A stretch of 64,000 bases of DNA from contig JBGAJA010000002.1 of assembly GCA_044225175.1 (NCBI GenBank), positions 146,917 through 210,916 of the forward strand, read 5' to 3'. Below are positions 34,540 to 64,000 of this stretch, piece after piece. Source of the stretch: Candidatus Omnitrophota bacterium. GTDB lineage: Bacteria > Omnitrophota > Gorgyraeia > Zapsychrales > Fredricksoniimonadaceae. The translations under genes and the position numbers were made by a program. Position 1 is the first letter of the stretch. Every line of letters starts with the position of its first letter. The notes beneath the pieces are model-generated. The model searched no databases, was not told the origin of the DNA, and saw only the letters and a program-made list of their open reading frames with translations.

Positions 34540-34545
34540 GAAGAT

Positions 34546-36171: not shown

Positions 36172-36173
36172 AA

Positions 36174-36425: not shown

Positions 36426-36426
36426 T

Positions 36427-40243: not shown

Positions 40244-40249
40244 AATGAC

Positions 40250-40277: not shown

Positions 40278-40295
40278 AGAAATATTTAAGGACAT

Positions 40296-41153: not shown

Positions 41154-41156
41154 TTT

Positions 41157-42062: not shown

Positions 42063-42083
42063 AAAGGTGTCAGACACCTTTTT
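42061..42083. repeat. REP-like palindrome copy 1: AAAAAGGTGTCAGACACCTTTTT
   Basis: Exact 23-mer, one of four copies. Confidence 0.75.
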
Positions 42084-42192
42084 ATTGACTATTTTTAGAT
42101 GAATAATTATCATTTTGTCATCTGATTCTCCCCATCAGAAGCAATCCATACCCCAATTGCTAAGTAATTTCAAAAAATCAAAATTCCTATCC

Positions 42193-42215
42193 AAAAAGGT
42201 GTCAGACACCTTTTT
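42193..42215. repeat. REP-like palindrome copy 2
   Basis: Identical 23-mer, 37 nt upstream of the RAYT start. Confidence 0.75.
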
Positions 42216-42251
42216 GACATTATCTAACCTCCCCGTTCAAGAAAGGTCAAT

Positions 42252-42935
42252 ATGCCTCGAAAACCACGAATCATCATCCCAGGAGAAATGTTTCATGTAA
42301 CCCAAAGAGGAAATTATCAACAACCTGTCTTTGAAGATGATCAAGACAGGGTAGTTTATTTAAAACTTTTACAAAAATATAAACAACAGCATGCTCTTAA
42401 TCTTTTTGCCTATTGCTTAATGAGTAATCATGTTCATTTGATTGTAAAACCAGAAGATCATACTTCCTTAGCTAAAACAATGGCCCATACCCATCAGAAC
42501 TATGCTCTTTATTTTCATAAAAGAAGAAAACGTCAAGGTCATTTATGGCAGCAAAGGTATTATTCCTGTTTGCTATATGGTCAGCATATTTTACAGGCCA
42601 TACGATATGTGGAAAGAAATCCAGTAAGGGCCGGTATGGTCGCTCAACCTTGGGAGTACGTTTGGTCCAGCGTTAACGCGCATCTAGGTAAAGTATATAA
42701 AATAATTACGTTAGAAGATAGTTCAGCTTTAATAAAAGATTCGGAATGGAAAGATTTTATTAGCTCTCCAGAAGACCTGACTCAAAATGATCAGCTTAGG
42801 CAAAGAACTCTCAAAGGATCTGTTTTAGGTGCGAAAGAAGACATTCAAGCTTTAGAAGAACGCCTAGGTCGCAAAGTCATCTTTATCCCTAAAAAAGTAA
42901 AGAAGATGTCAAAAAGGTGTCAGACACCTTTTTGA
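42252..42935 (+). CDS. IS200/IS605-family Y1 (HUH) transposase, REP-associated tyrosine transposase (RAYT)-like
   Basis: HUH motif 'SNHVHLIV', 'GHLWQQRYYS' catalytic-Tyr region, and about 60 aa of N-terminal similarity to TnpA_IS200. The C-terminus is translated through a REP copy. Confidence 0.8.
   Translation: MPRKPRIIIPGEMFHVTQRGNYQQPVFEDDQDRVVYLKLLQKYKQQHALNLFAYCLMSNHVHLIVKPEDHTSLAKTMAHTHQNYALYFHKRRKRQGHLWQQRYYSCLLYGQHILQAIRYVERNPVRAGMVAQPWEYVWSSVNAHLGKVYKIITLEDSSALIKDSEWKDFISSPEDLTQNDQLRQRTLKGSVLGAKEDIQALEERLGRKVIFIPKKVKKMSKRCQTPF
42912..42934. repeat. REP-like palindrome copy 3 (overlaps the RAYT 3' end)
   Basis: Identical 23-mer. Confidence 0.75.
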
Positions 42936-42984
42936 TGGTCTTAGGCAGGTCTTATTTGGGTGTAAATGGGTTTTACAGCTATTT

Positions 42985-43022
42985 TTCCAGTCTGGAACAT
43001 ATTTGGTTCATCCAGACTGGAA
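42985..43022. repeat. Inverted repeat ttccagtctggaa ... tccagactggaa (12-bp arms, roughly 13-nt spacer)
   Basis: Seen directly; function unknown. Confidence 0.4.
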
Positions 43023-43109
43023 ATTAGCTAAAAAGGTTATTTACGGTTAAATAATGGCCATTTAAGAAGATTATATAATTGCAGGCTGGCTTAATTGTAA
43101 AAATAGATC

Positions 43110-43132
43110 AAAAAGGTGTCTGACACCTTTTT
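43110..43132. repeat. REP-like palindrome copy 4 (central A to T variant)
   Basis: AAAAAGGTGTCTGACACCTTTTT. Its flank 'gattactattttta' resembles the copy-1 flank 'attgactattttta'. Confidence 0.7.
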
Positions 43133-43460: not shown

Positions 43461-43488
43461 TTGCCATTTGTATATAATATGTTATACT
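43461..43488 (+). promoter_or_regulatory. Candidate promoter (TTGCCA - 16 nt - TATACT) about 50 nt upstream of the giant ORF
   Basis: Sequence match inside a roughly 400-nt AT-rich region with no ORFs. Confidence 0.3.
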
Positions 43489-43539
43489 CGTTGCATCAGG
43501 TAATTACCGTCGACAACTTGAAAATGTATCAAAAAATAA

Positions 43540-46500
43540 ATGGATAAAAACGAAGAATTCGAAAATCCAATTTCCTCTAACGAGGGCATCAAGTCTGATG
43601 GATCAGAGTCTGTATCTGCAGATAATATAGATATAGGCCACTCATCAGAATCTTCTTATTTGAAATTTCCAGAAAACCTTTCCCCCGTCGCTGCTAGTAC
43701 GAACCCCGAAGAAAGTTTTAATTCTATCGACGACAAAGACTTTAGAAATGGATCCGCCTTTGGCGGAGACCCAAGTCTCATTCAAATTCCACGCGCTGAT
43801 CAAAATCCATTTGTAAGTAACTTTAAACAATGGATCAAAGCGGTTGCTATTTTTGTATTAATAGTATTTATACCTGATCAAATAAGCTGGGCTTTTGGGT
43901 ATAATCCACAAGTCCTTTATAAAGATTTGCCTATTACAAGCGCCCCTATGTCATCGTCGGTGATGAATATGGCGGCCAATGACGCCGGCAAGATTTTACC
44001 TCACCAACAAATTTCCGGTTCCGTTGAATATTTGCTTAACCAAATCAAAGACAAAGAAAATCTTCGTGTGCAGTTGAACGTAGAGAATCCTAAAGATGCA
44101 AACAAATCCGCAGCTCATCAACTTGAAGTGGACACAAAGATTAAATTCGACAAACAAACCATTCAAGAAATTACAAAATGGTTGTCTCAAGAGAATCTAA
44201 ACATTCTTAATTGCGGTGTTTATTCCTTGCAAAAATTGCTTGAGCACAGAGGCATCAAACGCTCGCTGGAAGAAATTGCTGTTTTAACAATCGCCACCGA
44301 TTTAATGACCAACATTATTAAAATCGGTGAACCAAAACTCAAGACCACATTATTCTCAATGGCTAAAGTTGGAGATGCCTTAGGTTTAAATTACAAAGCC
44401 ATCAAGCTAGAGGCAAAAGACGAATTAACATTACCCACGCCTTTCATTGCCTCCATCAAAGGCGAACACTTTGTGACTGTCAAAAAAGTGACAGACACAC
44501 AAGTTTTTGTAGAGGACTTAGGCCAATCCAAAACATTAGATAGAAGAATTTTTGAAGACAGCCTGACTGGTTTTGCTTATGCCAATGTTGGCGAACATTT
44601 TAAATCTGAACTTTACGAAGTAGTCCCTGAAGCTTTGCAAGCATTTGTCTGGGGAGATAAATGGCGTGACCGCACCGGAGACTTGCCTGGATTGACCAAC
44701 TGGAACCAAGTCATTATTACTGGGGTCATTCAAGTGGCCATGTGCTTTATTCCCTTAGCTGGAGAATATGTGGGTGCATCGGCCGGAATCACAGCCACAA
44801 CAACCATGGAAGTCACCAATAGCGCAGGTGAATTAATTGCAGCCGGTGCTATCGCCATGGCTGCCAGCCAATTAGCCGGAAACATTGCAACAGTTTGTAC
44901 GATGAAAGGTGCCTGTAATGCCACGACGGGATTCTTATTAAGTACGGCGCTTTCTGTTGGTTTGACCATGGGAGCAAGCTCTGCTGCAGGTATAGCTCAC
45001 GGAGGATTTGCCAATAATATTTTAGGAAAAGAAGCTAATCCAGTTTCAAAGTTTGCCGTAGATTTTGCTTTTAATTTTTCTATGGGACTTGTCGCTGGTT
45101 ATGCCAGCCTTGAAGCAACCCGAGCTGTTCAAGAAGCCATTTGTAAAGATTCGAAAAAATGCTCAGGGACTCAAGCCATTCTCTCCCAAGCACTCGGCAC
45201 TATTGCTGGATCAGTTGCTTCCATTGCAGCAACCACAGTCACTGCCTATGGGCTATCTCAAATGCCTGGCAAATTTGGTGAAGCCGTTTCAGACACTTAT
45301 GGATTCAGAGAAAAGAATGCTGCCAAGGCCGCTCGCGAAAATGTGGTGAATAATCAACCTGAAATTAAGCAGAGTGGGGATGCTATCATTAAAGCAGCTA
45401 CCATAGATAATCTACCCGCTGACCAAGTCCTGCAAATAGATCCTCATTTTACAGACACACCTCAAAACAGGGCGATTGTTCAAGACTTGCAAAGTCCAAC
45501 TCCTGGAACTGTTAATGAAGCCATAGGTAAAGTCAGAGAAAGCCTTACTCAAGACTATAGAAATGAAGGTGTTGGCACATGGGCAGCGGATGATGCCATT
45601 AAAAATAATCCTGATTTGGCCCCCCAACGCGCAGAAATGATTAGAGACCTGAAATCCGGTGTGGTTTTAGGAAGTGATGGAAACTATAGTTTTAATAATC
45701 CAACTTTAGAACCAGCTGTTCTTCATGCCATGGACAATGCCAATGCCTGGCACAATACTTCTTTTGGCCAAGTGATGTCCGACATGGCCATCAGCCAATT
45801 GCCTGCGATCGCCGGACAGTTAACAGGAATGATTGCCCAAATCGTCGCCTACAAAGCAGGAGGCGTTGATCCTGATAGTGGAATGTCCCAAGGATTAAAT
45901 CAATTCTTTAGTTCAGCAGGAAGCTTGGCGGCAGGTTACGGCATGCAGCAATCAGGCATGGTCCCAAGAAGCACATCCGAAAATATTTCAGCAGCGATCA
46001 AAACAGGTCTTATCCGATCTGCCTTTGCCTTAGGTTTAGGAATTGTGGAAGATAAGATTATTGAGAAACCAGCCAAAGGGTCTTCCGCCCGCGCTCAATG
46101 GCGTTATGAAGAAAAATTGGCCCAGCTTCGCGCTTTCAATTTTGTGGCCTCCAGCTTTTTAACAGGGGCCATCATCGCAACCACCGATGAACAAAATACC
46201 GGTATCGAAGGCGTATCCGTAGACTCTATGAAGAACGCCATTGCCCAGCGTGCCCGAGCCAAAGCCTCTCAAGAAGCTGAAAACAATCCCTACATGATTA
46301 ATTATGCAACCCAAGAAACAGATACTCCACAAATGGATACGTCTAAGGGCCCATTATATGGAAAGATGATGGAAGATTTTAAAACTAAAGCAGGAGAAGA
46401 TGCTTACCAAGCAACCATGGACAGTATGAATGTTTCCTGGGGACGTCGAGCTTTGTTTTCAAGCCTTCATATAATGGGCAACACGGACAACAGCTTTGTG

Positions 46501-49500
46501 GCTAACTTCATGGGAATTCCTGAATCACGAAACTATTACACCAATGGCAGCTGGGGTCCAACCCAAGGAGCCTATGGAGTCACACCTGGACCCAACAATT
46601 TTGTGGCCTACAGTAATACACTACAGCAGTTAAGCGGATGGACAGTTAACATGGCCCTCCAAGCTGATCAAATGTGGAAAGACATGAAGGAGACCAATAA
46701 TTTGATCACAGGAATGCCAACGAGTGCAACTAATGTCGGCGGCCTAGTTGTGGCTGACTATATTGGCGCTCCTCAGAGAATGACCCAGGAACGCCTCCAT
46801 GATCAATGGGTGTTGCAATTATTCAGTTCCAAAATGTTAAATCCCAATCGATTGAATTACAGCTATATCAACTCGACTCTTCAAAATGCCAACATTGATA
46901 ATTATGGTCACTATTTGCCAGGGGCCATTGTAAGCGCCTTAACCAAACCAAAAGTTTATGATGTCACCAAGAATGAAGACGGAAGCTTCTCTTATATAAA
47001 CGAGGACAATCAGAAAGTTACTTTAGATAAACAAGAGGAACAAGATATTTCTTACAAACCTGTTTGGGATGATAAGGGCAATCAAACCACCGCTCCAATT
47101 TATGTCGATGATAAAGCCCAAATTGCTGCCATCAAATGGGGATTGCCTGTGGTTCGTATGGCAACGGTATTAGGTGACAATGGCGGATTTAATTTAGTGC
47201 AAGGCGATGTGACAACCATGAAAAGCGGCGTGACAGGTAAGGATGAAACTGTGTATGTGGGTCGAGGATTTAGAGGAGTTGAATTAGATGTGATCAATCA
47301 TCGCGGCAATGGATTCATTGAAAGAACTTGGGTCAATCCTAATGATGAGAGAAGAGAACATATCCGCATAGGCGGCAAAGCTTACGTCGATCCAGCAGAA
47401 TTAGAAAGCCAATTAGAAACGTTACGTAACGAAGGAAAGACGCTGGAGATTCAAGACCGCACAGGTAATCTTTTAACAATTACGGCTAAGACTGAGGAAG
47501 AACTCAAAAGTAAAATCGACAGCTTAGATGATGACACCGTCTCAAATTTTGCCACAAGCTATGGTCCATCAGTCAGCAATGAGGCTGTATCGCAAGAAGG
47601 CAGAGACAAGCTCAAACAAAAATTGAGTCAAGATTTCCAAGCTCAAAACAGCGGTCCTCAGAAATGGGGCTATGAATATGACGTCTCTGGACAAGCCATA
47701 GGTTTTAAAGATACAGACGGAGAAGCCATTGCGCTCAATCAAGTGACCCAGCGATTGGTTGAGAAACATAACCATCAAATGAATGAAGCAACCCAGGGAC
47801 TGGTACCTATTGTTAATGGGGCCATATCTGCTCCATTAGTCAATGCCGATGGACGTTCCTTAGCTGCAGAAAATGGAGGTAATAAAGCTGCTCAATTATT
47901 GGCTGGAAGAAATTTCTGGGTGGAAGGTACAACAGAAAGCCAAGAAATGCAAAAGTTCATCAAAACCTCCGGAGGCATTCACAATATTATTGGGGGAGAT
48001 GGACGAGGGTTTAATTTCAATTATAGAGGTACGTACGATAACTCCTCTTTAAACTTGCAGCTTCCAACAACTACCCATGAAATGAAGGATGGCAAAGCCC
48101 AGCCTGTATTCGTCAACCAAGCCATTTTTGGAAATAAAAATTTCAGCAGCATGTACATGACGGGGGCTATGTCGGATGGAACATTCTGGTCTACCAAGGA
48201 CGGCTCAGCCATTTCTTCGGCATTTTTAAGTTTCGATTCCCTAAGCGGAAGGATTGCAGGGTATAACGAGAGTATTGTAAGTTCGAAAGAAGGTCTTCAA
48301 TACAATGATTTCCAAAACGCTTATCAACAACAATTGGCCCCAGATCAAAAATTTGATTCTGCTCAAATGGCCGCAGCTGCTGGTCCTTTAGCTGCCCAAC
48401 GATATTTAGCTGCCCATGCGTTTGCGGCTCGCTTAGGGACTTTGAATGCTTCTCCAGCCAGTTCGATGGTTGCTTTCCAAGCCTTTGGACGTGATGACCA
48501 AAGGGTCACAGACACGCCGCTGTATGAGGACCAATTTGTCTACAGTCCTCAAGCTAAGCAAAATGCAGAAGAACCCGATACGTATGAAGGTTCAGCTATA
48601 CCTACATCTCACGTAGATAGCAAAAAGCTGAATATTCAAGGCCAAGGATTAGTGTATTCCTCGGCCAATCAAGCCAACATGTTTGCCATCAATAAAAGCG
48701 TTAATCAGAACAGTCGATTCACTTCTGGTTTGATGACCACATCGCCTTTGAATGTCCTCGATCAAGGAACACTAACAGCAACCGTTAATCATGGAGAAGT
48801 CGTTTTCAAATCATTTGCCGAAGATGCATCCGGTAACGTCACCGATTTCGCTGGGGCTCCATCTATTCAAGGAGATACCGCTACAAAATCCAAGGCATTC
48901 GCAAACCAATTACAAAGTCCAAGCCCGTTAATGTTGTCAGATGTACAAGCGGATAATGAGGCATGGAAAACTCAATTCCCAGCATTAGATATTTTCTCAA
49001 CTACCAATAGCAATTCTCCCCAATTGAAATCCATGATTGAGGAAGGTATCAAAAACACTAACCCAGAGAACTCTACTTTAACGGTTAATTTTAATAATGG
49101 ACGTTTGGCCAATATGAATTTCCAAGGATATTTCGGGACCCAAGCAGGATCATCCTCCAGTGGAATATTATATGAATCCCAGGAATCTTCTGGAGGCAGC
49201 AAGGATGAAGGTTGGAAAGGGGCCACAATCGCCCCATTTGTCTTTCCTTCTGAAGCTGCTTTGCAAAGCAATCCAACCTTACGTAAATTAGCGTTGAATG
49301 ACAACTCCCAGGTGGCCGCTACATTTAATTCTCAATCAGGCGGTTTACAGGTCAAGTTTGGTAAGGGAAGTATTCTATATTCTGACTCTACAGGTGGTTT
49401 GAATCCATTTAATCCAACATTAGATTATAAGGGCCAAGCGTATTCTCAAAATGAATACAACAGTGCTATTTATGTTGGCCAAAATTCCGATGGAAGCCCA

Positions 49501-55500: not shown

Positions 55501-58500
55501 TCTAATTCTGGGATAGCTGGAAGATTAGTCACCAAAGCAACTGGTTTAGAATCAGGAGCAGGTTATCAGTCTTTAGTATTTGGAACACGGTTGGCTGCAA
55601 GTGAAGCTCTCACGGTAGGTGTTCCTAATGCGATCAGCTTCCTTAATACGGGACATGGCCTATCCTCTAAAACAAACTGGACATTGGCAGGGATTGGTTT
55701 GTCTTATCCTATCGCTCGTGTGGTCACATCGTCTTCATTCGTCCCAGTCGTCTTTAGCAGACGATTGACAGACGCTCCAAGCGTGTTTGGTACGGTCGCT
55801 CGAATGGGACAATCAGCAGTGTCTCAAGGATTACTCTGGGGCCAAATTGATGCCTCTGTGGCTGCAGCTCATTCAGCCATGGGCAATGGATCAATCACCG
55901 CCAGCGATGTATTCTTCAAAAATTATCTTCCTGGATTAGGCACAGGTGCGGCCTTTGGAGCTGTGACTGGTTCTATGCGCGGTGTAGTGGAAAGACCTAT
56001 GACGCCTGATACGATGTTGAAAAAATATGCAGCTGCAGCCAGTATTGGGGCCACTGCTAATATTTTAAACGGCTGGATCAATCACGGTTCAAACTATAGC
56101 ACCAAACAGATGTTAGAAGATGCAACTGTAGGCGTTGGCATGGGCCTATTTGGAATGGCTGCTTTGAAGAATCCAGAATGGTTCAAAAGTTTATCAACGA
56201 CTAACAAACTGCTTGTAGGAGCTGGTGTAGGAAGCATAGCAAGAATAACAGATCAAGCGGTCTTTCATTCAGACTCTATTATTGGTTGGGAATCAGAAAA
56301 AGACCATCATTATACAAAGGGAAGAGCTTTAACGGATGCAATCGTAGGTGCAGGCATGGGAGCTTTAGGGGCCCACTTCATTGGGGGTACCAAATTAGGG
56401 GGGGCAAGTGCTGAAAGTGAAATTGCTAAAAAGATGCTTCCAGAGAACCTATTGTCCACAGCTACCTCAGGGGCATTGAAATGGACCTATGTTTCTCCCG
56501 CCTTCACATTAGGACAATCAATTTGGCAAGGAAGATTAGACAAATTAACAGCCAGAGAACTCATCGACTCTTCCATCGAAGGTCCTAGATCCGGTCGCTG
56601 GATGGGTGTTGCCTTTGATGCGGCCCAAGTCCATGGCACAGCCAGAAGTGTAGCCCAATTAGAAGAAGCAGGGTATTCGAAATTCGGCGCCAGAATGGTG
56701 GCTGGATTTGAAAATACCGTGATGAATATGCAAAAAGGCCCATGGGAAGGAAATTTAGGCAAGCACATTTGGAGCAACATCATTTACATGCCAGGGCTGA
56801 TGAAAACCGTGGATGCTTTTACTCAAGCGGCAGATATTGGATTTGAAGTCAATGGTCAAAAGGTTTTTGGAGGATTGACAGACTTAAGAAACTCCATTGA
56901 CGGCACCCAAAATTTACAACCTGTGATTGGCCGCTATGTCGTCAATGACAGAGGTGAGGCCACATACGCTCCTGATACAAAAACATCTCAATACTTTAGT
57001 TTTGGGGTCATGACCGCTTTGCCTGCTTATCAGCCAGGTGTTAGTTCATCTAATCAAGCAAGAACAATCGTGGATCTTTTAAGAACTCCAAATAGAACCG
57101 AGGGGGCTGCAGAACAAGGATGGTTTAAAAAGGTTGTCGGCAAAACAAGGTCTTATATCAGTGATCTTTCTAGAACTCAAAGACGAGGTGCGTTTTATAC
57201 AGGATGGATTCCTTCCCGATTTTCTTCTTCGACTAATAATGTCGAACGAGCTAAGAAGGTGGTGGAAGCTTCGCCTCAAGCTAAGAGCACAACGCCCACA
57301 GAACTATCAACGGCTTCAAAGGTCACCTCAGCTATCGAAAGCTATAGAGCTTCTATGGGCTCACAAACAGCAGAGCAATTGACCATCGACCAGGCCCATA
57401 TGGCAGCTGAATTCTCCAAGCTATCTGCCACTGACACAGATTTGCATGCGGCCGTTGGAGGAGATGTCGTTAGTTTCTTAAGAGATGTAAGACAAGCTTC
57501 TCAAAGACAATCGGTTACCGAAGCTTTAAGAGGGTTAAGTGACGGTACAAAAAGAACAATTTTAGGTAATGTCGACGCACCATCAGGCAGTATTGCAAAG
57601 CTTTTTGAAGCTAAAATTAAAGGTCTTGATTTCAACAATCTTCCCAAGGACATTGATCCAACTTTAAGAAGAACAATCAAAGATACCCAAAGTGCCCATG
57701 ACCAATACACCAAAGACCTCAATGACGCATTTCGTTTAAGGACTGCAGTGCAATTCATTAAAGGAAGCCAAGGTATGACAGATCAAAGAGCTCGGGCCTA
57801 TGAGTTCTTTAGAATTTTGGGAGCTATGCCTGAAAAAGGAGCTGAGGGACTTGGGAATGCTCAAGTCAAAGACATCGAAGCCGAACGAGTGACGCTTGAA
57901 CGCTTGCACCAACAATACTTAGCTGAAGGTGGACCAGTAGAACGGTTCATTGGCGAGATTGTAGGCAGTTCACAAAGAGATTTGGTTAGAAAAGCCATGC
58001 AATTGACCAAAAAAGCATTTAGTGGTGGAAGCAGCGATGCTAGAAATCTTGATACACAAAATGTCCTTACAAAAATCCGCAATATCCTTGTAGACAATAT
58101 GCAGTCACGTCTTCAAGTGAGCCTTCAAGACTTAGGGATCAGGGTGGATTCCCATACTGTAGATGGCAAGAAGATACTTACCTTAAAAGATGCAACCAAT
58201 GAGAATAGAGCGCTCACAGACAAAGAAAAAGCCCAGGCTTTTGACAGAGTTTTAAGATCAAACATTTCATTTGAACAAAAGGTCTTTGAACTTTTAATCC
58301 TCTCTAAATCAGAACAAGGCCAAAGCTGGGACATTGATTTAAATGACATTGCGTCCATCATGGATTTTCATGCTGTAGCCAAAGAAGCCAAAGATAACCG
58401 CACTCAATTAGCTGTCTTAGATAAATACATGGGGGGTGGTAAATCAGAAATCGCAACCATGTTGGCCTTAGCTGCCTTCCATGATAGTGGAAATAGCTTC

Positions 58501-61500
58501 CTTAAAGGCAGGACCCTGGTGTTGGCAAGTAAAGACGGATCATTGCTAAGCAAATGGTTAAAATTGACAGAAAAAGACAATAGTATCTTTAATTTTAAAC
58601 CAGCCCCATTGGTGGAAGTCACGATCCCAACCTCTAGATTTTCAACAGAAGTGTTAGAGCAATTACAACAAAGAGGCATTGTAGAAAATGTCGAAGGCAC
58701 CACCACCCAAGTGAGACTTAAAGCAGAGAATTTGAATAGAGATGTAATCAAAGACATTGCCAAGTCAGAAGCTGAGGATGTTTGGAAGACATTAGAAAAT
58801 GCCAAGGAAGCTCAAGATGCCAAGCGCATTGATTTCAATGAACGCTTACCAGAGGGGATCGTCGTTTTAGATTATAAACAAATCTTTGAATACGTCTTAA
58901 ATGGTTTGGAAACTGGACACTCTCATTTTAAGAATTCGGTGTTAATTGGAGATGAAATCCATGAATTGCTTTCATCCGCTCCTTTGATTTCTGGGGTATC
59001 CATGGAAGTCATTTCCAAGGGTATTGAAGAAATGAGAAAAGATCCAAAATTAAGCGCTGCCCTTGAAAATGACCGTATTTTTGAACTGGCCACAGCCAAA
59101 GCATCCACCCAGACCCAAGAGAGTTTAAGCAAACGAGTACTTGCATCCCATGTGGAAAAAGCTGGGTTTAATTATAGTCAGTTGATGGGTGAGATTGAAC
59201 GATTAGGCTATGTGCAAAAAGACGCGCAAGGAAATTATCGAGTAACGGACAGCTTTAAGAAGGACAAGAACACATTGAAAGACCAGTTATCTGGCCAATA
59301 CTCTCAAGATCAAATCTCTCATGTGGAATGGATGCTTGATCGCTCTCAAAATGATGCATTCTATAATTTAGTGACCCATAAAGACGGCGGGCGATTTGCC
59401 CCTGAATTTACCAAAGAAGCCCAAGAAGCCATTCAAGAACAATTAACGGCCCAAAGGGAAATAGAAAATCCTTACTCCGACGCAGGTGGAGCCGATAAGT
59501 TTAAAGATTTTCTAGATAAGCTTGCCTGGATTTCATTGGCCAGAAGTGAAAAGGCTGATGGGACCATGGTGGATTTCTTCAAAGACAAAGATGGCAAACT
59601 TAATTTCACTCCTGCTGATCCATTCAATGGAGGCAAGAAAAATGTTGGCCAGGTATGGAATGATGATCAATTAGTTCGTGCTGCATTTGCGTATGAAGGA
59701 GCCCGAGGCGAGCAAGTGAATGCTACAGATCGTTTGGAAAAGGTCTACCATCAAATGGGTCTTCAGGCCACATCCAGTGATGTTATTAAGGCCTTTGACC
59801 AGGTCTTTGGGTTAACAGGGACCATGAATGAAAGTCCTAACGTGTCTTTGTTTGCTTCCAAGGTCAACCGATTTGTCCGCTCCATCACATCCAGAGACGT
59901 GCAAACAACATTTAGATTAGGCGGCAATGAAACAATCCGTACTTCATGGAATAACTTCCTTTCCAAGATCAATGGGAAATTAGGTTTTGGAATCATCCAT
60001 AAAATTGGTAAAGAATCCGTAAAGGCCTTAAATGACCAAATCCTTGAAAGCACAGATCACGCAGGCAGGTTAGTGAAAGATAAAAATGGAGAATATGAGC
60101 TTCAAGTTGAAATTTCTAAAGGTGAATGGGTCAAAGCAAGTGAAGAACAAGCAGCTAAAATTAAAACCGTAGTCATTATGGCTGAGAATCAAGAAAGCTG
60201 GGGGCAAGACCAAGCAGCCAGCATGAAAGGTCAAGAAAACACTGTCATTACATTTGCCGATATTGCGGACATCACTAAGGAATGGAAATCTGTCATTAAA
60301 AACTCAGAAGAATTAACTGGAGTGCTTAAACTCTTGTCGGGTAAGAATATCTTGGCCATTGGACAATTTGGTCCTGGGTTAAGTATTGAAGCGGTAGATG
60401 GCTATCGCGGGCTTGAAATCATTACATCACCTACAAGCTCGGATCGTATCTTGCAGCAATCCACCCGTATGAACACGTTAAATTCAAAGGGTAAGAAATC
60501 TTTTGCCGTGTCTCGTATGGAAGGTGAAGTTGAAGTGATTTTAGATGGCAATGAATTCCATCTTTCCAGCAATCAAACACAAACATTAAGATTACAGCAA
60601 GCCAAATTAGACAGGGCCCAAGAGAAAGTCAATGCCAATCCAAATGACACGCAAGCCAAGGCAGAATTAGAAAACGCTCAAAGAGAACATCGAGAAGCAT
60701 TTGAAGGGACATTCAGAGAAATTGGTAAAGGGATCATTTCCACAAGCATTGTCTCAACCATGGCCCATCAAAAAGGCGGTTCATTTGAACAAGCCATTCA
60801 TCGACTCAATCAAATTTATGAACACTTAGATGCCAATGCCGCACGTTTGCAGATGAAGTCCACCAATTTGCCTCAAGCTTATTTGCTTAACCCTATGGGG
60901 GTCGGGGTATTTAATGTTTATAGTGAAGGAAAGACCCAATTCAAATCAGGGGTCAAAAATGCCGCAACAATCGTCACTCCCGGCAGCCAATTGGCTCTGG
61001 ATCAATTTGGCAATATCATTTATGGCGGCCAACATGGGGTTGTGGTTGATCCAATGAGTGGATGGATTTATGACCTTCAAGATTACCAAAAAGACCCAAC
61101 TTTAAAAGGAGTGCAAGCATTAGGTAGTATTGTGGATGTTGATCAGCCAACAACCATTCAAGGATTTAATGGTACATTCACCACAGAAAAAGCTAAAGCA
61201 GTTATGCTTTTTGATGACTCTTCTTTAGAAGGCGCTGCGGAAAGCAAAGCTAGGGTGGGTCGTGTGATGACAAAGGCTGTTTTGAATGGGACCAATCAAA
61301 TGGTGGATATTGAAGACTCATGGGTATCTCCTCACCAAACAGGCGCACCAGAACATGCCGGTGGAACAATCAAGAATGCTGCCCTTTTTGGATTACCAGC
61401 CAACATTAAAGTTTCCAAAGTCCAAACAACCAAGCATGGAACAGCCTATCGATTGGTTTATTCCCAACATGATGGTCAAGATGAATTGCATGCGGCTATT

Positions 61501-64000
61501 GTCGATGGCCAAATGTATATGCTTAAAAAGATCAATGAAAAGACTGGTGAAAATTTAAAGACCGTTTACAGGTTCCAACACAAAGCGATTGAAGAAATAC
61601 GACAAAAAGATTTAGTATCTGCCAGAGCAGTCATGGAGCGTGATTTTGAAATCACCGAGAATCCAAGCTCACAAACAGGATATGAAGTTAAGGCTGATCA
61701 AGGAAGGTTCTTAGGGTTTGCCAGTTCAGCGAAGAACTTGAGTGTTAATCTTAAACCTGGACAACAATGGGAAAATAATTTTAATGATCAAGAGCAAAAA
61801 CAATGGACCATTGTTCGTGATGACAAGGGTAACATTACCTCTGGGATCTTAGATGGCAATGTCTACAACGCCGACAATTATGGACGATTAGTTGCTAATA
61901 ACTTTAATTTCAAATACCGCTATAAAGATGACAAGGGTGAAAAACAAACAGTCCTTTTGTCAACCACAGACAGATATTCCATGCAAGACAATGTGATGAC
62001 CAGAAACCGCATGGCCTGGCAAGTGTCCAGTGAACAGCTTAAGCATTTATCCGCTAAATTCCCAAGATTTAACACGAATAATTGGATTGATCCAAGGACA
62101 GGAGTCATTCATGACAATCAAGGTGCTATTGGTTTAATTTATGATGGCATGATTTTACCTTTGGCAGAAGATGGGACTTTGGATATTGAATTAAATATGC
62201 GCGGGGTAGACATGCTAAGGGCTGCAGGTATTTTGGTGCCTGGTTCATCTTATATGCAAAATCTAGAAGAATTGACGGGTAATTGGAACGATTATGCTAA
62301 AACGATTGAAAGACCTTCTCAGAGCGGATTTAAGTCGATTAATATCAAGTATACTGACTTGCAACAGGGAATTGAAAACGCCAAACAAGAGCAAGACAAA
62401 GCCTTAAGAATGAAAGAGCAGCTTAAGGATTCTAAATTAAACGATGTGGAACGTACCAGGATTGCCCAAGAATTTAACACTTTGATTGAAGCCAAAGCCA
62501 AACAGCAGGGCTTTGTGCTTACTCAAGGAACAGATGGCATGTTAACGATTGAAACAGGAACAGCGTTAGGTTCACACCCATTGGCTGAACTCATCAATGA
62601 GGTGAACAAACTTAAAGGCTTAGGTAAAGAAGAAGGTTCTCAGGAAATCCCTGCTGTCCGTATCAATTCTCATTTGGATGCTGAAGGTGTGGCTGCCAAC
62701 ATGAACAATAAAGAAATGCAAATCGGGCCAAGTACATTGATCTCTGCCTTATTTAGTGTAAGCACACTGGAAGCCGGGGTTTTGAACCACGAAGTGCACC
62801 ATGGTCAAGAACGTTTGGCCAGATGGGTTGGAGAAAAGAAGATTTTGGGTCAGTCTCGTATTGATAATCAAACTGGCTGGTATGTGGATTACAACCGTGG
62901 TGTGTACCATACCAATTTCTCCGTGAACGAATATGCGACCCATGTCATTGAAGCCCATGGTAAATATAGAGAATATGTGAAGCTCATGCAAGATGGAGAT
63001 TGGGAAGAAGCCCGCCATTATGCTTCTGAAGCAGCCAAAGTATTAAATCGCGGACGTAACATTGCTTTGACCAATCATGATATTTATCGCATGGCTAGAC
63101 AGGTAGTTTCCAAGAATTTCTCGAATGTGATTATTGAGGAAGATATTGATCCAGTCAGTAAAGAACGACAAGGACATGGGCATGTGGCCCACATTTTTAT
63201 TCCTAATTCTCAGCAAGAAATTGTTGCCCAATTGGAAATGGCTTTGCCTAAAGATTTGTCGTCTGATCCAGATGCTAGAAAAACATTGATTTTAAAAATG
63301 ATCGATGATTCCTTGGTTGTTTTAAAGGAAGCCCAGGCAGCCATGGGATTAAAAGCCGCTATTTATGAATATTTTCCAGAAGATGAACGTGTGCAAGCCT
63401 TGGAAGCCAAGGTCAATGGCGCAATCGACATTAAAGACACCAACAACTTAGCGACATGGAAATTAACCAGAGAGATTCGCCAAAAATTTGCAGGTAAGGC
63501 CAACGATGATCAGGACGTCAGGCTAATTCTGGAGAACATTTTTAGTCAAACAACTATCCCTGAGAAAACCTCAGCAGGCTATGTTTACACGAATAGCAAA
63601 AATGGCTTTAGCATCACATTAAAAGACAATGGCGACATTTTCAAAGTGGATTTACCGCAAGATTACAGATCACGCATGGTCAGCTTCATGAGAGATTTTG
63701 AAGCAAAAGTCGAACAACGAAAGAGTGAATCAAACGCCATCAGTCAAGACAACAGGGCCAAGTTCTATGCTCAATTAAAGACAGCTTCGCCTCAAGAATT
63801 AGAAAACGGAAAAGAAGAACTCCTTACCTATCAATTGCCTAAAGACCAGGTAGTTAGTTGGTTGAAATATGGTCAAGACCAACGTTATGCCATGGTCCTG
63901 GGAGGAGATAGAAACCTATTTGTCCAAACAGCCGGCTTACTGCACGTTAAATTTGGGACAGACAAGGGTAAAGACAATCAAGCGATTGATGACAGAGACA
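43540..64000 (+). CDS. Giant protein, at least 6820 aa and truncated by the window end: membrane anchor, C39-like papain-fold peptidase domain, Gly/Ala-rich hydrophobic tracts, SF2/SecA-like ATPase motifs
   Basis: I hand-translated the frame from the ATG at 43540 to position 64000 and met no stop. The ORF track shows no stop-delimited plus-strand ORF anywhere in 43392..64000 in this frame, and the other frames are chopped. The sequence is protein-like throughout. Confidence 0.8.
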   Translation, partial: MDKNEEFENPISSNEGIKSDGSESVSADNIDIGHSSESSYLKFPENLSPVAASTNPEESFNSIDDKDFRNGSAFGGDPSLIQIPRADQNPFVSNFKQWIKAVAIFVLIVFIPDQISWAFGYNPQVLYKDLPITSAPMSSSVMNMAANDAGKILPHQQISGSVEYLLNQIKDKENLRVQLNVENPKDANKSAAHQLEVDTKIKFDKQTIQEITKWLSQENLNILNCGVYSLQKLLEHRGIKRSLEEIAVLTIATDLMTNIIKIGEPKLKTTLFSMAKVGDALGLNYKAIKLEAKDELTLPTPFIASIKGEHFVTVKKVTDTQVFVEDLGQSKTLDRRIFEDSLTGFAYANVGEHFKSELYEVVPEALQAFVWGDKWRDRTGDLPGLTNWNQVIITGVIQVAMCFIPLAGEYVGASAGITATTTMEVTNSAGELIAAGAIAMAASQLAGNIATVCTMKGACNATTGFLLSTALSVGLTMGASSAAGIAHGGFANNILGKEANPVSKFAVDFAFNFSMGLVAGYASLEATRAVQEAICKDSKKCSGTQAILSQALGTIAGSVASIAATTVTAYGLSQMPGKFGEAVSDTYGFREKNAAKAARENVVNNQPEIKQSGDAIIKAATIDNLPADQVLQIDPHFTDTPQNRAIVQDLQSPTPGTVNEAIGKVRESLTQDYRNEGVGTWAADDAIKNNPDLAPQRAEMIRDLKSGVVLGSDGNYSFNNPTLEPAVLHAMDNANAWHNTSFGQVMSDMAISQLPAIAGQLTGMIAQIVAYKAGGVDPDSGMSQGLNQFFSSAGSLAAGYGMQQSGMVPRSTSENISAAIKTGLIRSAFALGLGIVEDKIIEKPAKGSSARAQWRYEEKLAQLRAFNFVASSFLTGAIIATTDEQNTGIEGVSVDSMKNAIAQRARAKASQEAENNPYMINYATQETDTPQMDTSKGPLYGKMMEDFKTKAGEDAYQATMDSMNVSWGRRALFSSLHIMGNTDNSFVANFMGIPESRNYYTNGSWGPTQGAYGVTPGPNNFVAYSNTLQQLSGWTVNMALQADQMWKDMKETNNLITGMPTSATNVGGLVVADYIGAPQRMTQERLHDQWVLQLFSSKMLNPNRLNYSYINSTLQNANIDNYGHYLPGAIVSALTKPKVYDVTKNEDGSFSYINEDNQKVTLDKQEEQDISYKPVWDDKGNQTTAPIYVDDKAQIAAIKWGLPVVRMATVLGDNGGFNLVQGDVTTMKSGVTGKDETVYVGRGFRGVELDVINHRGNGFIERTWVNPNDERREHIRIGGKAYVDPAELESQLETLRNEGKTLEIQDRTGNLLTITAKTEEELKSKIDSLDDDTVSNFATSYGPSVSNEAVSQEGRDKLKQKLSQDFQAQNSGPQKWGYEYDVSGQAIGFKDTDGEAIALNQVTQRLVEKHNHQMNEATQGLVPIVNGAISAPLVNADGRSLAAENGGNKAAQLLAGRNFWVEGTTESQEMQKFIKTSGGIHNIIGGDGRGFNFNYRGTYDNSSLNLQLPTTTHEMKDGKAQPVFVNQAIFGNKNFSSMYMTGAMSDGTFWSTKDGSAISSAFLSFDSLSGRIAGYNESIVSSKEGLQYNDFQNAYQQQLAPDQKFDSAQMAAAAGPLAAQRYLAAHAFAARLGTLNASPASSMVAFQAFGRDDQRVTDTPLYEDQFVYSPQAKQNAEEPDTYEGSAIPTSHVDSKKLNIQGQGLVYSSANQANMFAINKSVNQNSRFTSGLMTTSPLNVLDQGTLTATVNHGEVVFKSFAEDASGNVTDFAGAPSIQGDTATKSKAFANQLQSPSPLMLSDVQADNEAWKTQFPALDIFSTTNSNSPQLKSMIEEGIKNTNPENSTLTVNFNNGRLANMNFQGYFGTQAGSSSSGILYESQESSGGSKDEGWKGATIAPFVFPSEAALQSNPTLRKLALNDNSQVAATFNSQSGGLQVKFGKGSILYSDSTGGLNPFNPTLDYKGQAYSQNEYNSAIYVGQNSDGSPTHMRFGWVADRDQNGNIKKDARGNTVFLSPTSTLLVDKTTFTNKEIFLNNTSRLDLETFTSEESHVFKVNDASKPFVWNSGNWELPADSKSLSVGVNYVKSQLGKDLTDQKKVADANAMMASSQLGLTPIRGVTEDEQKKFYQAVYSDIKAGPGGVFLYQPTPSETHNQLLSNIFLSPVLNTSLSNPLSQIGVGQVINNMEGSVSNTGDFAQSGSHSILHDLRSKFDQNQSPQPTANADQAPASVRLPAGDKATTTINPLVQGYVNRVDTTAGGVWYGESSRSLHNNVTSENSLILENEPEYAILGQAQFNVGDQTHSFSATTYFRPNSTRIVGQLGQNGYTLRGVGNAESAMDMFDGGYLAVSDNGPHPGLGLGYARTIGIDRVTKNGQEISNGLWTANVGSVRKAIGSILGFPGRSDGSFSLEDGKMVVSSDTATNNLLEGKASFQGFARAENGVEDVAMNFNSLQYTPNNEIMFVATAKDNAQEGKFPISGEAFIGGANPSNGAAGAAAEKTDPGIANIARLRNPQGNKDVVLALVGGTGGNANEQLGVLYSTNGFTFNPNAEGSKYSFVNGTNNSNRVYFGDHNSAWGLGFGIEGGRKVGLEGSEPTYFNNTRQINEAGTITDEEQGFTYVFEGDAKKGSWNLAKEDSLFPDTMNKGLTPQRQAVIYSGKAKGIGITQNYVDFMMNQEGTLQYLPLNANHAKIPRTVVADTPIDSSLDFETSQGIAARASADTGIGLTAFNAPAELSTQNTAEFTSPNSFGDSTPKTNNTSLIETALSSKPVSQTNDLGIDLLLPRQASSAISNMDSSRSPQQILTAPEDPAFESVTGSGLTRQVGTTANGTPIYETEISSDDSLVARAPESVRDVNQITLSYAPMYQGFNHLFEGQFQAEKLGSKNQFISGVQTDAQGNLTGGYIVAAENHEYNNPASLTNRPLAGYQVWLGQDGFAKRGMRSGWVNMTATGTANLALKTGGVVQAEGLLSGINFMAVEGVGQPKFLNFNVAQAQIDGRNFDVTSGVYSEGVNSGKPFVDVTGEHMPLVLSEMSAPRSVPSASSPTDSEHTDTQNPYRDPKITGQLMVDATSNEFMTAAQKAGYRTMNVVNGTSDVTEVNGQERVSVGISNLNNPSLGFSGDFTNTVIGTQGNQPLTYGVQVDSTGKPLARFYAQNDNAINDLIAFDSSATPVNIGGGARGVGGNEVVFLHQATVQGQDGRAQQTKYALSQGVNVKWNAQGAIEQLNGFNHVATDNEGTGANATPNWQLATSKIDNGKAVFSLIGDNAHGSFFLPQSVSSSDDAKQAGNPNQPKAQDINATQLSASIADGVVGLRGDGLAYDLTFGHKGTGSIQTDLRNVNIDNNTGLTDLAYGLQTNINSKDQTSTTNALIADNERQLSFNGEGQILNKNVSAKPADMDSTTYRELASTRANLIGDVQSAYQAFDAVKTSKNDDQRQAAAKELVTALGELQNFSLTDGKFFNHASELSSNISFAISEVEKAAASPVQSQNNQEQAVHSIYLNEIKDLQNKKAQLSQTPTVQELVDKGDNDPIKRQKADENRKELDQVEERLNRLINGGESITEMEHVNDIASGNLDISTIQQNSFLSALGAMKTYDTAVATQDMGKDKMGEASQAAFSQAFADHAAGTALSNLNNDDMYNTVHHEFQHQNINPGQGEIVAFNKLSNLFSADPNSFNAFVPKEYTDSPYERRVMAERIIAANQNGDYAAEVAMEGLGYSQHKLLTLAGSLSDLASIAGIHVSNPIAFNTYRQTDNERFIEDVVSGKIALNGNFGLLDQMDRIKQDELTGVSGGVTKAAQWVSNFGYTFFVPTDDALSQMTNTGMALHASGPASLIASVVTAPISLAAAGSNAARITATEIATEAAANSGVRAAGSAVTEAALNTGAKSAAKFWSTSVNPMNVVNSLSGINSARGLSTAALYPVMRRVGFTAGSVGIANVSNYIAHGEALSSAESGMVAAGAFGTATAFDVLGQANMFKVNAAGQTSNSGIAGRLVTKATGLESGAGYQSLVFGTRLAASEALTVGVPNAISFLNTGHGLSSKTNWTLAGIGLSYPIARVVTSSSFVPVVFSRRLTDAPSVFGTVARMGQSAVSQGLLWGQIDASVAAAHSAMGNGSITASDVFFKNYLPGLGTGAAFGAVTGSMRGVVERPMTPDTMLKKYAAAASIGATANILNGWINHGSNYSTKQMLEDATVGVGMGLFGMAALKNPEWFKSLSTTNKLLVGAGVGSIARITDQAVFHSDSIIGWESEKDHHYTKGRALTDAIVGAGMGALGAHFIGGTKLGGASAESEIAKKMLPENLLSTATSGALKWTYVSPAFTLGQSIWQGRLDKLTARELIDSSIEGPRSGRWMGVAFDAAQVHGTARSVAQLEEAGYSKFGARMVAGFENTVMNMQKGPWEGNLGKHIWSNIIYMPGLMKTVDAFTQAADIGFEVNGQKVFGGLTDLRNSIDGTQNLQPVIGRYVVNDRGEATYAPDTKTSQYFSFGVMTALPAYQPGVSSSNQARTIVDLLRTPNRTEGAAEQGWFKKVVGKTRSYISDLSRTQRRGAFYTGWIPSRFSSSTNNVERAKKVVEASPQAKSTTPTELSTASKVTSAIESYRASMGSQTAEQLTIDQAHMAAEFSKLSATDTDLHAAVGGDVVSFLRDVRQASQRQSVTEALRGLSDGTKRTILGNVDAPSGSIAKLFEAKIKGLDFNNLPKDIDPTLRRTIKDTQSAHDQYTKDLNDAFRLRTAVQFIKGSQGMTDQRARAYEFFRILGAMPEKGAEGLGNAQVKDIEAERVTLERLHQQYLAEGGPVERFIGEIVGSSQRDLVRKAMQLTKKAFSGGSSDARNLDTQNVLTKIRNILVDNMQSRLQVSLQDLGIRVDSHTVDGKKILTLKDATNENRALTDKEKAQAFDRVLRSNISFEQKVFELLILSKSEQGQSWDIDLNDIASIMDFHAVAKEAKDNRTQLAVLDKYMGGGKSEIATMLALAAFHDSGNSFLKGRTLVLASKDGSLLSKWLKLTEKDNSIFNFKPAPLVEVTIPTSRFSTEVLEQLQQRGIVENVEGTTTQVRLKAENLNRDVIKDIAKSEAEDVWKTLENAKEAQDAKRIDFNERLPEGIVVLDYKQIFEYVLNGLETGHSHFKNSVLIGDEIHELLSSAPLISGVSMEVISKGIEEMRKDPKLSAALENDRIFELATAKASTQTQESLSKRVLASHVEKAGFNYSQLMGEIERLGYVQKDAQGNYRVTDSFKKDKNTLKDQLSGQYSQDQISHVEWMLDRSQNDAFYNLVTHKDGGRFAPEFTKEAQEAIQEQLTAQREIENPYSDAGGADKFKDFLDKLAWISLARSEKADGTMVDFFKDKDGKLNFTPADPFNGGKKNVGQVWNDDQLVRAAFAYEGARGEQVNATDRLEKVYHQMGLQATSSDVIKAFDQVFGLTGTMNESPNVSLFASKVNRFVRSITSRDVQTTFRLGGNETIRTSWNNFLSKINGKLGFGIIHKIGKESVKALNDQILESTDHAGRLVKDKNGEYELQVEISKGEWVKASEEQAAKIKTVVIMAENQESWGQDQAASMKGQENTVITFADIADITKEWKSVIKNSEELTGVLKLLSGKNILAIGQFGPGLSIEAVDGYRGLEIITSPTSSDRILQQSTRMNTLNSKGKKSFAVSRMEGEVEVILDGNEFHLSSNQTQTLRLQQAKLDRAQEKVNANPNDTQAKAELENAQREHREAFEGTFREIGKGIISTSIVSTMAHQKGGSFEQAIHRLNQIYEHLDANAARLQMKSTNLPQAYLLNPMGVGVFNVYSEGKTQFKSGVKNAATIVTPGSQLALDQFGNIIYGGQHGVVVDPMSGWIYDLQDYQKDPTLKGVQALGSIVDVDQPTTIQGFNGTFTTEKAKAVMLFDDSSLEGAAESKARVGRVMTKAVLNGTNQMVDIEDSWVSPHQTGAPEHAGGTIKNAALFGLPANIKVSKVQTTKHGTAYRLVYSQHDGQDELHAAIVDGQMYMLKKINEKTGENLKTVYRFQHKAIEEIRQKDLVSARAVMERDFEITENPSSQTGYEVKADQGRFLGFASSAKNLSVNLKPGQQWENNFNDQEQKQWTIVRDDKGNITSGILDGNVYNADNYGRLVANNFNFKYRYKDDKGEKQTVLLSTTDRYSMQDNVMTRNRMAWQVSSEQLKHLSAKFPRFNTNNWIDPRTGVIHDNQGAIGLIYDGMILPLAEDGTLDIELNMRGVDMLRAAGILVPGSSYMQNLEELTGNWNDYAKTIERPSQSGFKSINIKYTDLQQGIENAKQEQDKALRMKEQLKDSKLNDVERTRIAQEFNTLIEAKAKQQGFVLTQGTDGMLTIETGTALGSHPLAELINEVNKLKGLGKEEGSQEIPAVRINSHLDAEGVAANMNNKEMQIGPSTLISALFSVSTLEAGVLNHEVHHGQERLARWVGEKKILGQSRIDNQTGWYVDYNRGVYHTNFSVNEYATHVIEAHGKYREYVKLMQDGDWEEARHYASEAAKVLNRGRNIALTNHDIYRMARQVVSKNFSNVIIEEDIDPVSKERQGHGHVAHIFIPNSQQEIVAQLEMALPKDLSSDPDARKTLILKMIDDSLVVLKEAQAAMGLKAAIYEYFPEDERVQALEAKVNGAIDIKDTNNLATWKLTREIRQKFAGKANDDQDVRLILENIFSQTTIPEKTSAGYVYTNSKNGFSITLKDNGDIFKVDLPQDYRSRMVSFMRDFEAKVEQRKSESNAISQDNRAKFYAQLKTASPQELENGKEELLTYQLPKDQVVSWLKYGQDQRYAMVLGGDRNLFVQTAGLLHVKFGTDKGKDNQAIDDRD

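Follow-up and report, generated by a model that had tools for sequence, protein, structure and literature searches.

A Tad-linked giant gene of an Omnitrophota bacterium with a conserved C39 peptidase module and a putative P-loop NTPase region

The 64,000-nucleotide stretch analysed here (contig JBGAJA010000002.1 of a Candidatus Omnitrophota bacterium, positions 146,917 to 210,916; hereafter the window) ends inside an open reading frame (ORF) of at least 6820 codons, to which we refer as the giant gene. This 20.4-kb stop-free frame is one genuine, very long gene, located behind a Tad pilus locus, and it is a new, largely sequence-unique member of a class of giant genes already described in Omnitrophota, a class for which such uniqueness is itself typical. 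Its N-terminal chassis, consisting of an acidic tail, a membrane helix, a C39 peptidase domain with an intact triad and an Ala/Gly-rich hydrophobic block, recurs in dozens of assemblies. With a probability of roughly 0.6, we read the product as a Tad-linked giant membrane protein of Omnitrophota that would serve as an envelope-anchored surface machine for contact with host or prey cells, the function being the part that we infer.

In frame +1 of the plus strand, the ATG at position 43540 opens a run of 6820 sense codons with no stop up to position 64000, where the frame is still open. Stops abound in the remaining frames of this 20.46-kb stretch, with 395 and 576 on the plus strand and 291-444 per frame on the minus strand. 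Given the 0.062 stops per codon predicted from base composition, the probability of reading 6820 codons without a stop is ∼1e-190, and the longest stop-free run across 200 shuffles was 233 codons. A chance ORF or an antisense artefact was rejected on the basis of these stop counts and shuffles. No N letters occur in the window. Each 3-kb slice of the giant gene displayed a GC content of 0.50-0.52 at the first codon position and of 0.31-0.39 at the third (GC3), which is the pattern of the neighbouring genes. Tandem DNA repeats were not detected in the gene by TRF, nor were internal repeats in the protein by self-BLASTP. A first-pass annotation of this DNA, made from the letters alone, had reported an uninterrupted frame of more than 20.4 kb and at least 6820 codons without long tandem repeats, and was correct in both respects. 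A repeat-type giant adhesin or RTX protein was rejected as a candidate, since tandem repeats, self-BLASTP matches and repeat families of Pfam were all absent.

The same annotation had placed an in-frame TGA six codons upstream of the start. This TGA is present, but it lies seven codons upstream, and a TAA at 43537-43539, directly before the ATG, is nearer. The protein starts with MDKNEEFENP and its relatives with MAKNEDFTNQ (P0001) and MNKNEDFNKQ (L085); since these residues are nearly identical, the start at 43540 is credible. There is no obvious Shine-Dalgarno sequence before this ATG. A sigma-70-like site (TTGCCA, 16 nt, TG-TATACT) was noted at 43461-43488, ∼50 nt before the ATG and past an inserted transposase described below; it is a consensus match only, and such sites in this region are not above shuffle expectation.

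The layout of the protein was drawn from its composition, its hydropathy (Kyte-Doolittle) and comparison with its relatives. It comprises the following features, given in window positions and in amino acids (aa) of the product.

43540 to 64000, plus strand: giant ORF of at least 6820 codons, without in-frame stop and with gene-like codon-position GC throughout
43540 to 43830 (aa 1-97), plus strand: acidic N-terminal tail of net charge -11, from composition; start conserved in P0001 and L085
43831 to 43896 (aa 98-119), plus strand: membrane helix or signal anchor, Kyte-Doolittle peak 1.99
44209 to 44574 (aa 224-345), plus strand: C39 cysteine peptidase domain, PF03412, E 2.2e-10, 40.9 bits (cut-off 22)
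aa 368-384, plus strand: AFVWGDKWRD...LPG motif, invariant columns of alignment A1
44641 to 45339, plus strand: conserved motif and Ala/Gly-rich hydrophobic block 1 (aa 390-600), from composition and Kyte-Doolittle peaks at aa 390-408, 432-450 and 546-564
45637 to 47289 (aa ∼700-1250), plus strand: second conserved region without known domain, 25-35% identity by tblastn in 7-13 loci
47290 to 55224 (aa ∼1251-3895), plus strand: variable, Cys-free region rich in Asn, Gln, Ser, Thr and Gly, from composition; one matching locus
55225 to 57030 (aa ∼3896-4497), plus strand: conserved hydrophobic module 2, Ala/Gly-rich with a weak membrane-helix signal, from colinear tblastn matches and a Kyte-Doolittle peak at aa 3834-3852
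58432 to 60519 (aa ∼4950-5660), plus strand: putative nucleoside triphosphatase (NTPase) region resembling superfamily 2 (SF2)/DEAD proteins, from motifs and a Pfam DEAD match below threshold
62692 to 63249 (aa 6385-6570), plus strand: conserved HExxH region (HEVHH at aa 6417, downstream E-x-x-T-H), from alignment with L082

Four elements of the first-pass annotation reappear in this layout: the acidic N-terminus followed by a transmembrane helix, the C39-like peptidase domain, the Ala/Gly-rich hydrophobic blocks (by composition, aa 390-600 and 3801-4330), and the ATPase-like motifs (GGGKS at aa 4965, DEIH at aa 5138). Peptidase_C39 is the sole curated domain that Pfam recognizes in the 6820 aa. 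Among the eight sequences of alignment A1, residues N224, C225, H310 and D326 are invariant, and by the known motif pattern of these peptidases (CG..., HF/HY, D) we assign Cys225, His310 and Asp326 as an intact C39 catalytic triad. Invariant residues of the anchor region in eight sequences are F95, W98, A103, F110, P112, Q114, S116 and W117. The protein contains only six cysteines, five of them in hydrophobic block 1 and none beyond aa 541; in the relatives, cysteine makes up 0.06% of the residues after aa 650, as compared to 0.8-1.2% in the other genes of the window. Neither Pfam nor NCBIfam matched aa 700-1250 or 1251-3895, Pfam did not match the HExxH region, and searches with Pfam at E values up to 10 (five sub-regions) and with NCBIfam (all ten chunks) gave nothing meaningful. 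A search of the whole protein against the PDB sequences returned only chance nanobody matches at aa 4515-4576 with E values of at least 0.002. This segment (57082-57267; GWFKKVVGKTRSYISDLS...YTGWIPSRFSSS) marginally matches camelid nanobody framework 2-3 (E 0.002-1), which we judged to be a chance resemblance.

The N-terminal chassis was compared with its relatives. The first 1100 residues match seven proteins with 35-46% identity, all of which contain a C39 domain and are encoded in Omnitrophota metagenome-assembled genomes (MAGs) and metagenomes; on their contigs, the C39 gene follows TadB and TadC, in that order. Scanning metagenomes with an alignment of the N-terminus yielded 52 loci, among them a few duplicates or near-identical contigs, so that the independent cases are somewhat fewer. 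In 48 of these loci, the matching frame stays open as far as the fetched DNA extends; 18 of the 48 show at least 3400 uninterrupted codons, a limit set by the 10-kb flank. Homologues of TadB and/or TadC with 43-84% identity lie upstream in 44 of the 52 loci. For seven of the remaining eight, the locus extends barely or not at all beyond the upstream side of the gene; L100, the last of them, shows no Tad match in a complete upstream flank of 10 kb. In L082-L084, the rest of the Tad locus is homologous as well, and in the same order.

Similarity to these relatives is distributed unevenly along the protein. Matching related loci number 33-50 at aa 80-600 (fewer past aa 500) and 7-13 at aa 700-1250. 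For aa 1250-3900, there is one matching locus among the 55 related loci fetched (L097, aa 1845-2482, 24% identity), and for aa 3900-4500 there are 2-4. Colinear tblastn matches to module 2 reach 36% identity over 600 aa in L093, 30% in L100, 27% in L104 and L122, and 26% in L082. At aa 6385-6570 a single relative matches, L082, the only one seen that far: the HExxH region is 26% identical over 200 aa, with HExxH and ExxTH aligned and a pairwise E value of 5e-9. The order of the modules is constant in all relatives, while the distances between them vary. No relative was found in a genome-contig scan with aa 5821-6820, and the metagenome contigs searched contained no exact copy of a 70-mer taken from the end of the window.

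These comparisons also bear on the idea that the frame is an artefact, either an assembly chimera or a decaying pseudogene left open by chance. The distal half, which lacks detectable homologues, could be taken in its favour. However, the recurrence of equally long open frames in relatives from many samples and assemblies argues against an artefact, as do the colinearity of the conserved modules with independent assemblies up to aa 6570, the absence of repeats that could misassemble, the codon-position signal that is uniform in all slices, and the stop-free probability given above. We consider an artefact extremely improbable.

The folding of the N-terminal part was approached by structure prediction. 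An AlphaFold model of aa 61-1260, built with eight sequences, had a low confidence (pLDDT) of 38.6, with values of 50-71 only in the C39 core, and showed long helices in hydrophobic block 1. Its best Foldseek matches in the PDB were PCAT1 and HlyB (E 3e-4 to 1e-2, ∼410-430 columns, poor TM-scores). These matches are consistent with the Pfam assignment of C39 and hint that the helices behind the peptidase may resemble an exporter membrane domain, to which we give little weight. Exporters of the PCAT1/HlyB type combine a C39 or C39-like domain with a membrane domain of six helices. The giant protein shares with them the C39 fold, the Cys-His-Asp triad and long hydrophobic helices behind the peptidase. 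In contrast to these exporters, its membrane helix precedes the peptidase, more than 6000 residues follow, no ATP-binding cassette (ABC) nucleotide-binding domain is present, and neither a double-glycine substrate gene nor a membrane fusion protein or TolC partner is found nearby. A PCAT-type ABC transporter was rejected since Pfam finds no nucleotide-binding domain; neither ABC_tran nor ABC_membrane had a match anywhere in the 6820 aa.

Since the triad is intact and invariant, the giant ORF could encode a polyprotein, that is, a precursor cut by its own C39 peptidase, and perhaps by the HExxH domain, into separately acting proteins. The same possibility was raised by West-Roberts et al. (2023; bioRxiv 10.1101/2023.11.21.568195). 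Two relatives have the gene interrupted behind this module: it falls into ORFs of 1251 and 4628 aa in L082 (10001-23756) and of 1459, 128 and 2806 aa in L084 (10001-23949), which suggests that the parts can work as separate chains. These splits could be real or could be sequencing errors, in the latter case frameshifts, and 48 of the 52 loci are unsplit within the visible stretch. Moreover, no conserved double-glycine cleavage motif was identified; the only N-terminal GG (aa 75-76) lies in an insertion that the relatives lack. A polyprotein seems less likely to us but is a serious alternative, and the idea overlaps with an envelope-anchored surface machine and does not exclude it. If true, it would mean that 'giant protein' names the gene and not the mature product.

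The uneven conservation allows a further, tentative view of how the gene is built. A conserved chassis may consist of the N-terminal anchor, the C39 domain, hydrophobic block 1, the region of aa 700-1250, hydrophobic block 2, the P-loop NTPase and the HExxH region, and it would hold, inside one gene, a replaceable, genome-specific ectodomain of ∼2600 residues (aa ∼1250-3900). We regard this replaceable ectodomain as possible but unlikely.

Behind the second hydrophobic module, we found a series of motifs in the order GGGKS (aa 4965), RTLVLASKDG, VVLDYKQ, DEIH (aa 5138) and GLTGT (aa 5424), with a possible second lobe up to aa ∼5660; this second RecA-like lobe was recognized by eye only. The order and spacing correspond to motif I (GxGKS/T), Ia, Ib, II (DExH) and the TGT motif III of SecA and SF2 DEAD-box motors. 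Pfam DEAD (PF00270) matches the giant protein below threshold (E 0.024) at aa 4965-5146, which is exactly the stretch from motif I to motif II. The equivalent segment of L100 matches Pfam DEAD with an E value of 2.6e-5 (24.4 bits, cut-off 26) and ResIII with 0.001. After the second hydrophobic module, L100 carries GTGVGKT, LIVIPKAEN, LIIVDSAQ and DDFH, and L082b carries GGGKT, PLILVPADK, VLDYKQ, SEYD and, later, QFFGRG. By position, motifs I, Ia, Ib and II are therefore common to the three proteins. Unlike established SF2 motors, all scores remain under the curated thresholds, and in one of the relatives motif II is degenerate (SEYD). Together these motifs point to a region that is likely a divergent SF2/DEAD-type P-loop domain. 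The label 'SecA-like' rests on the literature and on what we take to be SecA motifs V and VI, and is used here as a lead and not as a test.

Searches with this region were otherwise nearly blank. A full HMMER search of aa 4850-6049 against 1.84 billion representative proteins gave no homologues at E ≤0.001, a search of aa 4901-6100 in a word-indexed collection of 5.8 billion proteins gave nothing, and neither did the distal part of L082 in the protein index or the L082 motor region against the PDB sequences. The putative second helicase lobe had only marginal PDB matches, to ribosomal uS3 and ClpC. The MAFFT alignments A2 and A3 of the P-loop region misplaced the motifs. A profile of the three sequences was compared with the PDB and matched only Brr2 helicase, at motifs I-Ia with E values of 0.07-0.11; this result is only indicative because the underlying alignment A4 was made after an insertion of ∼85 aa had been removed by hand from the giant protein. 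AlphaFold modelled aa 4930-5700, without an alignment, with a pLDDT of 37.7, too low for the model to be of use.

Taking these observations together, we propose that the giant protein would be co-expressed with the Tad pilus and that its two hydrophobic blocks would hold it in the envelope. The Cys-free, fast-diverging middle (aa ∼1250-3900) would be exposed and would make lineage-specific contact with the host or prey surface, after which the chain would re-enter the cytoplasm via hydrophobic block 2. There, the divergent SF2/DEAD-type P-loop NTPase, SecA-like in the literature, may power export or remodelling. On this model, aa ∼600-3800 would lie outside and aa ∼4400-6800 inside. Cleavage of the giant protein, or of proteins that work with it, may fall to the C39 peptidase and perhaps to the HExxH domain as well.

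Several observations weigh against this proposal. Its topology derives from a crude hydropathy scan, which gave two clear membrane helices and three weak peaks within the two Ala/Gly-rich blocks, which score weakly, and both AlphaFold models are of low confidence. Pfam SecA_DEAD was not detected in the giant protein at E values up to 10, and the PDB sequence searches found no SecA or other helicase except the weak Brr2 matches. The Cys depletion spans the putatively cytoplasmic part as well, and is therefore by itself no marker of an exported segment. Since the gene is split in L082 and L084, a single polypeptide is not obligatory. Finally, Pfam and NCBIfam found no glycosyl-transferase, hydrolase, HEAT, dockerin or TSP3 domains in the 6820 residues, and it is these carbohydrate-active and repeat domains that underlie the published hypothesis of cell-wall degradation.

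As the first-pass annotation had stated, the giant gene lies right after a Tad locus: TadB, TadC and an upstream Tad set, related in part to the type II secretion system (T2SS), were identified by Pfam. The locus and the spacer that follows it contain the features below.

23790 to 42062, plus strand: Tad/T2SS-like locus, from Pfam and pilin N-termini; homologues in the same order in L082-L084
from 23790, plus strand: Rotamase_2 peptidyl-prolyl isomerase (Pfam)
from 24811, plus strand: RcpC/CpaB (Pfam)
25639 to 27606, plus strand: secretin (Secretin and T2SS-T3SS_pil_N) with a C-terminal TonB_C domain (E 2e-16; Pfam)
27771 to 29930, plus strand: CpaE-CpaF fusion ATPase of 719 aa, with ParA/MinD-like CpaE at aa 3-240 and CpaF-type T2SSE at aa 364-642
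after the CpaE-CpaF fusion and before the pilins, plus strand: DUF192 gene (Pfam)
31944 to 33866, plus strand: at least six paralogous Flp-type pilin genes, with a G/xxxxEY signature and then a hydrophobic helix
between the pilins and TadB, plus strand: two proteins without assigned family, 541 and 1134 aa
40296 to 41153, plus strand: TadB (T2SSF; Pfam)
41157 to 42062, plus strand: TadC (T2SSF; Pfam)
42062 to 43131, plus strand: insertion between TadC and the giant gene, with a Y1 transposase and four hairpins
42252 to 42935, plus strand: IS200-like Y1 transposase (Pfam Y1_Tnp, E 2e-15)

The fusion of the secretin with TonB_C is unusual; TonB-domain genes have been reported beside some giant genes (Nielsen & Lui 2026, bioRxiv 10.64898/2026.06.07.730766). 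Further paralogous small ORFs occur past the pilin genes, up to 34539 and at 39785-40243, and L082 and L084 carry homologues of the small pilin genes in an unchanged order. The exact TadC protein was found on one 2.3-kb Logan contig only.

What had been described as a transposase island between TadC and the giant gene proved to be a single IS200-like Y1 transposase with four copies of one hairpin. This palindrome, AAAAGGTGTCWGACACCTTTT, brackets the transposase at 42062, 42194, 42912 and 43111, with no copies expected by chance. The copies and the Y1 transposase resemble repetitive extragenic palindromic (REP) elements with a REP-associated tyrosine transposase, and the copies also score as bidirectional terminator-like sites. 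Because no more than ∼290-430 bp separate TadC from the giant gene in L082 and L083, we regard the transposase as a local insertion and not as the vehicle of the giant gene. The spacer measures ∼0.3-0.5 kb in most other loci and 3.5-5.7 kb in L085, L090, L095, L114 and L123, which suggests that the spacer is a recurrent insertion point. In L084 a PemK-type toxin pair sits between TadC and the giant gene.

The first-pass annotation had inferred a foreign origin or a distinct codon regime from hand-counted GC contents, which set the giant gene apart from dnaA and the Tad ATPase. This contrast was only partly right: dnaA does have a low GC content (36.9%), but the Tad ATPase has 41.3%, and the neighbouring genes range from 34.6 to 43.0%, as compared to 42.7% in the giant gene. 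Its GC3 (0.361) lies within the 0.27-0.47 of the neighbours. At codon position 2, the GC content is 0.41 versus 0.30-0.41 in the neighbours, a surplus that is due to the high content of Ala, Gly, Ser and Thr. The relative synonymous codon usage (RSCU) of the giant gene correlated with that of the housekeeping and Tad genes at 0.84-0.87, where the baseline, obtained by comparing halves of the housekeeping/Tad gene set with each other, was 0.91-0.93.

A horizontally acquired toxin or adhesin, carried in as foreign cargo with the adjoining transposase, would fit the slightly higher GC content relative to most neighbours, the RSCU correlation slightly below baseline, the IS200-like element next to the gene, and the report that mobile elements often flank giant genes (Nielsen & Lui 2026). 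However, GC3 is ordinary, the GC surplus at codon position 2 mirrors amino-acid composition, and the transposase and its hairpins appear to have inserted locally into an intergenic spacer. In addition, the same gene stands behind TadB/TadC in 44 other loci, mostly without a comparable insertion. A recent foreign origin is therefore unsupported by GC3, by codon use and by the conserved place behind TadC, and we hold the cargo scenario to be highly improbable.

The genome itself belongs to an Omnitrophota lineage, as judged from its GyrA matches and from the names of the N-terminal homologues of the giant protein, which NCBI lists as Omnitrophota or Omnitrophica. GyrA is 84-89% identical to proteins of MAGs titled Candidatus Omnitrophota bacterium, and equally close to those of co-assembly bins bearing automatic 'Planctomycetales' labels; among its close relatives are JAYTXU010000002.1 (102 kb), CAZABZ010000001.1 (119 kb) and JABDCU010000014.1, which share 88% GyrA identity. 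SRR28480388 is one sample that contains this lineage. Further bands of identity lie at 71-73%, at 59-65%, still including Omnitrophota-titled MAGs, and at ∼52-58% for other phyla. The window represents the chromosomal origin region, with thrS, parA, parB, yidC, dnaA, dnaN, gyrB and gyrA. A likely replication origin lies at 12548-14800, with the minimum of the cumulative GC skew at ∼12-14 kb and DnaA-box-like sites clustered on either side of dnaA: immediately before the gene at 13256-13275, and between dnaA and dnaN at 14635-14735, where one site is a perfect TTATCCACA. The giant gene is ∼30 kb from this likely origin and co-oriented with replication.

Genes of this kind are already known from Kizina 2022 and Seymour 2023, both as cited in later work, from West-Roberts 2023 and from Nielsen & Lui 2026. 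The first-pass term 'uncharacterized', in the sense of a protein of unknown kind, is thus superseded: the gene belongs to the described Omnitrophota giant-gene class, and relatives of its N-terminal module were found at no fewer than 52 metagenome loci. West-Roberts 2023 described that Omnitrophota giant genes are generally preceded by GspD/E/F-like genes, RcpC, Rotamase_2 and many small genes with class-III signals, in a locus of more than ten genes, that full-length giant genes encode a C39 (or S8) peptidase near a signal sequence at the N-terminus, and that most giant proteins have a divergent SecA_DEAD domain. Numerous transmembrane helices are a further trait of the class, and genes for PilZ, solute-binding proteins and glycosyl hydrolases would be expected downstream if the present gene follows the published pattern. 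Their set exceeds 30,000 aa, the type example being the 39,678-aa protein of Velamenicoccus archaeovorus LiM. The present gene resembles this set in its Omnitrophota genome and in the same upstream gene set. Its product likewise has an N-terminal region that is domain-free except for the C39 domain (aa 224-345) by the anchor (helix at aa 98-119), segments that probably span the membrane, a likely P-loop region of divergent DEAD type behind the membrane block, and very low similarity to any other sequence. It differs in that SecA_DEAD is undetected, that the visible length is at least 6820 aa with the frame open, and that the HEAT, glycosyl transferase, methyltransferase and NUDIX domains of archaeovorin are not in aa 1-6820. 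For the archaeovorin subtype, glycosyl hydrolase included, neither Pfam nor NCBIfam gave a match in aa 1-6820, and the unseen remainder could hold such domains. For the dockerin-type subtype, there was no Pfam match and no internal repeat in the same residues. SecA itself was matched neither by Pfam SecA_DEAD nor among PDB sequences, the preprotein-binding domain not having been looked at separately.

In Nielsen & Lui 2026, 13 of 14 giant genes had neighbours for secretion or pili, including Tad cassettes, and transposases were common nearby. In their data, 80% of the long-protein clusters at 30% identity are singletons, and one of the two largest architecture clusters consists of 24 Peptidase_C39 proteins that are each at least 10,000 aa long. 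The giant protein is like this group in that C39 is its sole Pfam domain, Tad/T2SS-F genes and transposases flank it, and its sequence is unique; the likeness is drawn from the published description of the group, and the members have at least 10,000 aa versus the at least 6820 aa visible here. The giant proteins of the ultra-small Omnitrophota are thought to act on host or prey cells, a published hypothesis for the class. The first-pass proposal of a secreted or surface effector therefore holds in part, inasmuch as a cell-surface role in a host-dependent bacterium is the leading published hypothesis.

Omnitrophota giant genes are among the longest in any organism, and their function is still guesswork. 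A specialist would expect such an ORF in this phylum, and in kind the present gene adds little. It adds an N-terminal family signature, a map of conserved and unmatched modules, the Cys depletion and motif-level evidence for the NTPase. Since automatic searches are blank for most of the protein, its annotation has to be based on the arrangement of the genes and on short motifs that recur at corresponding positions. Should the tentative view of a replaceable ectodomain be true, the gene would combine a hypervariable cassette for host or prey recognition with a Tad-coupled, self-energised export scaffold, and it would be a bacterial surface-variation system in one gene, beyond a very long string of enzymes.

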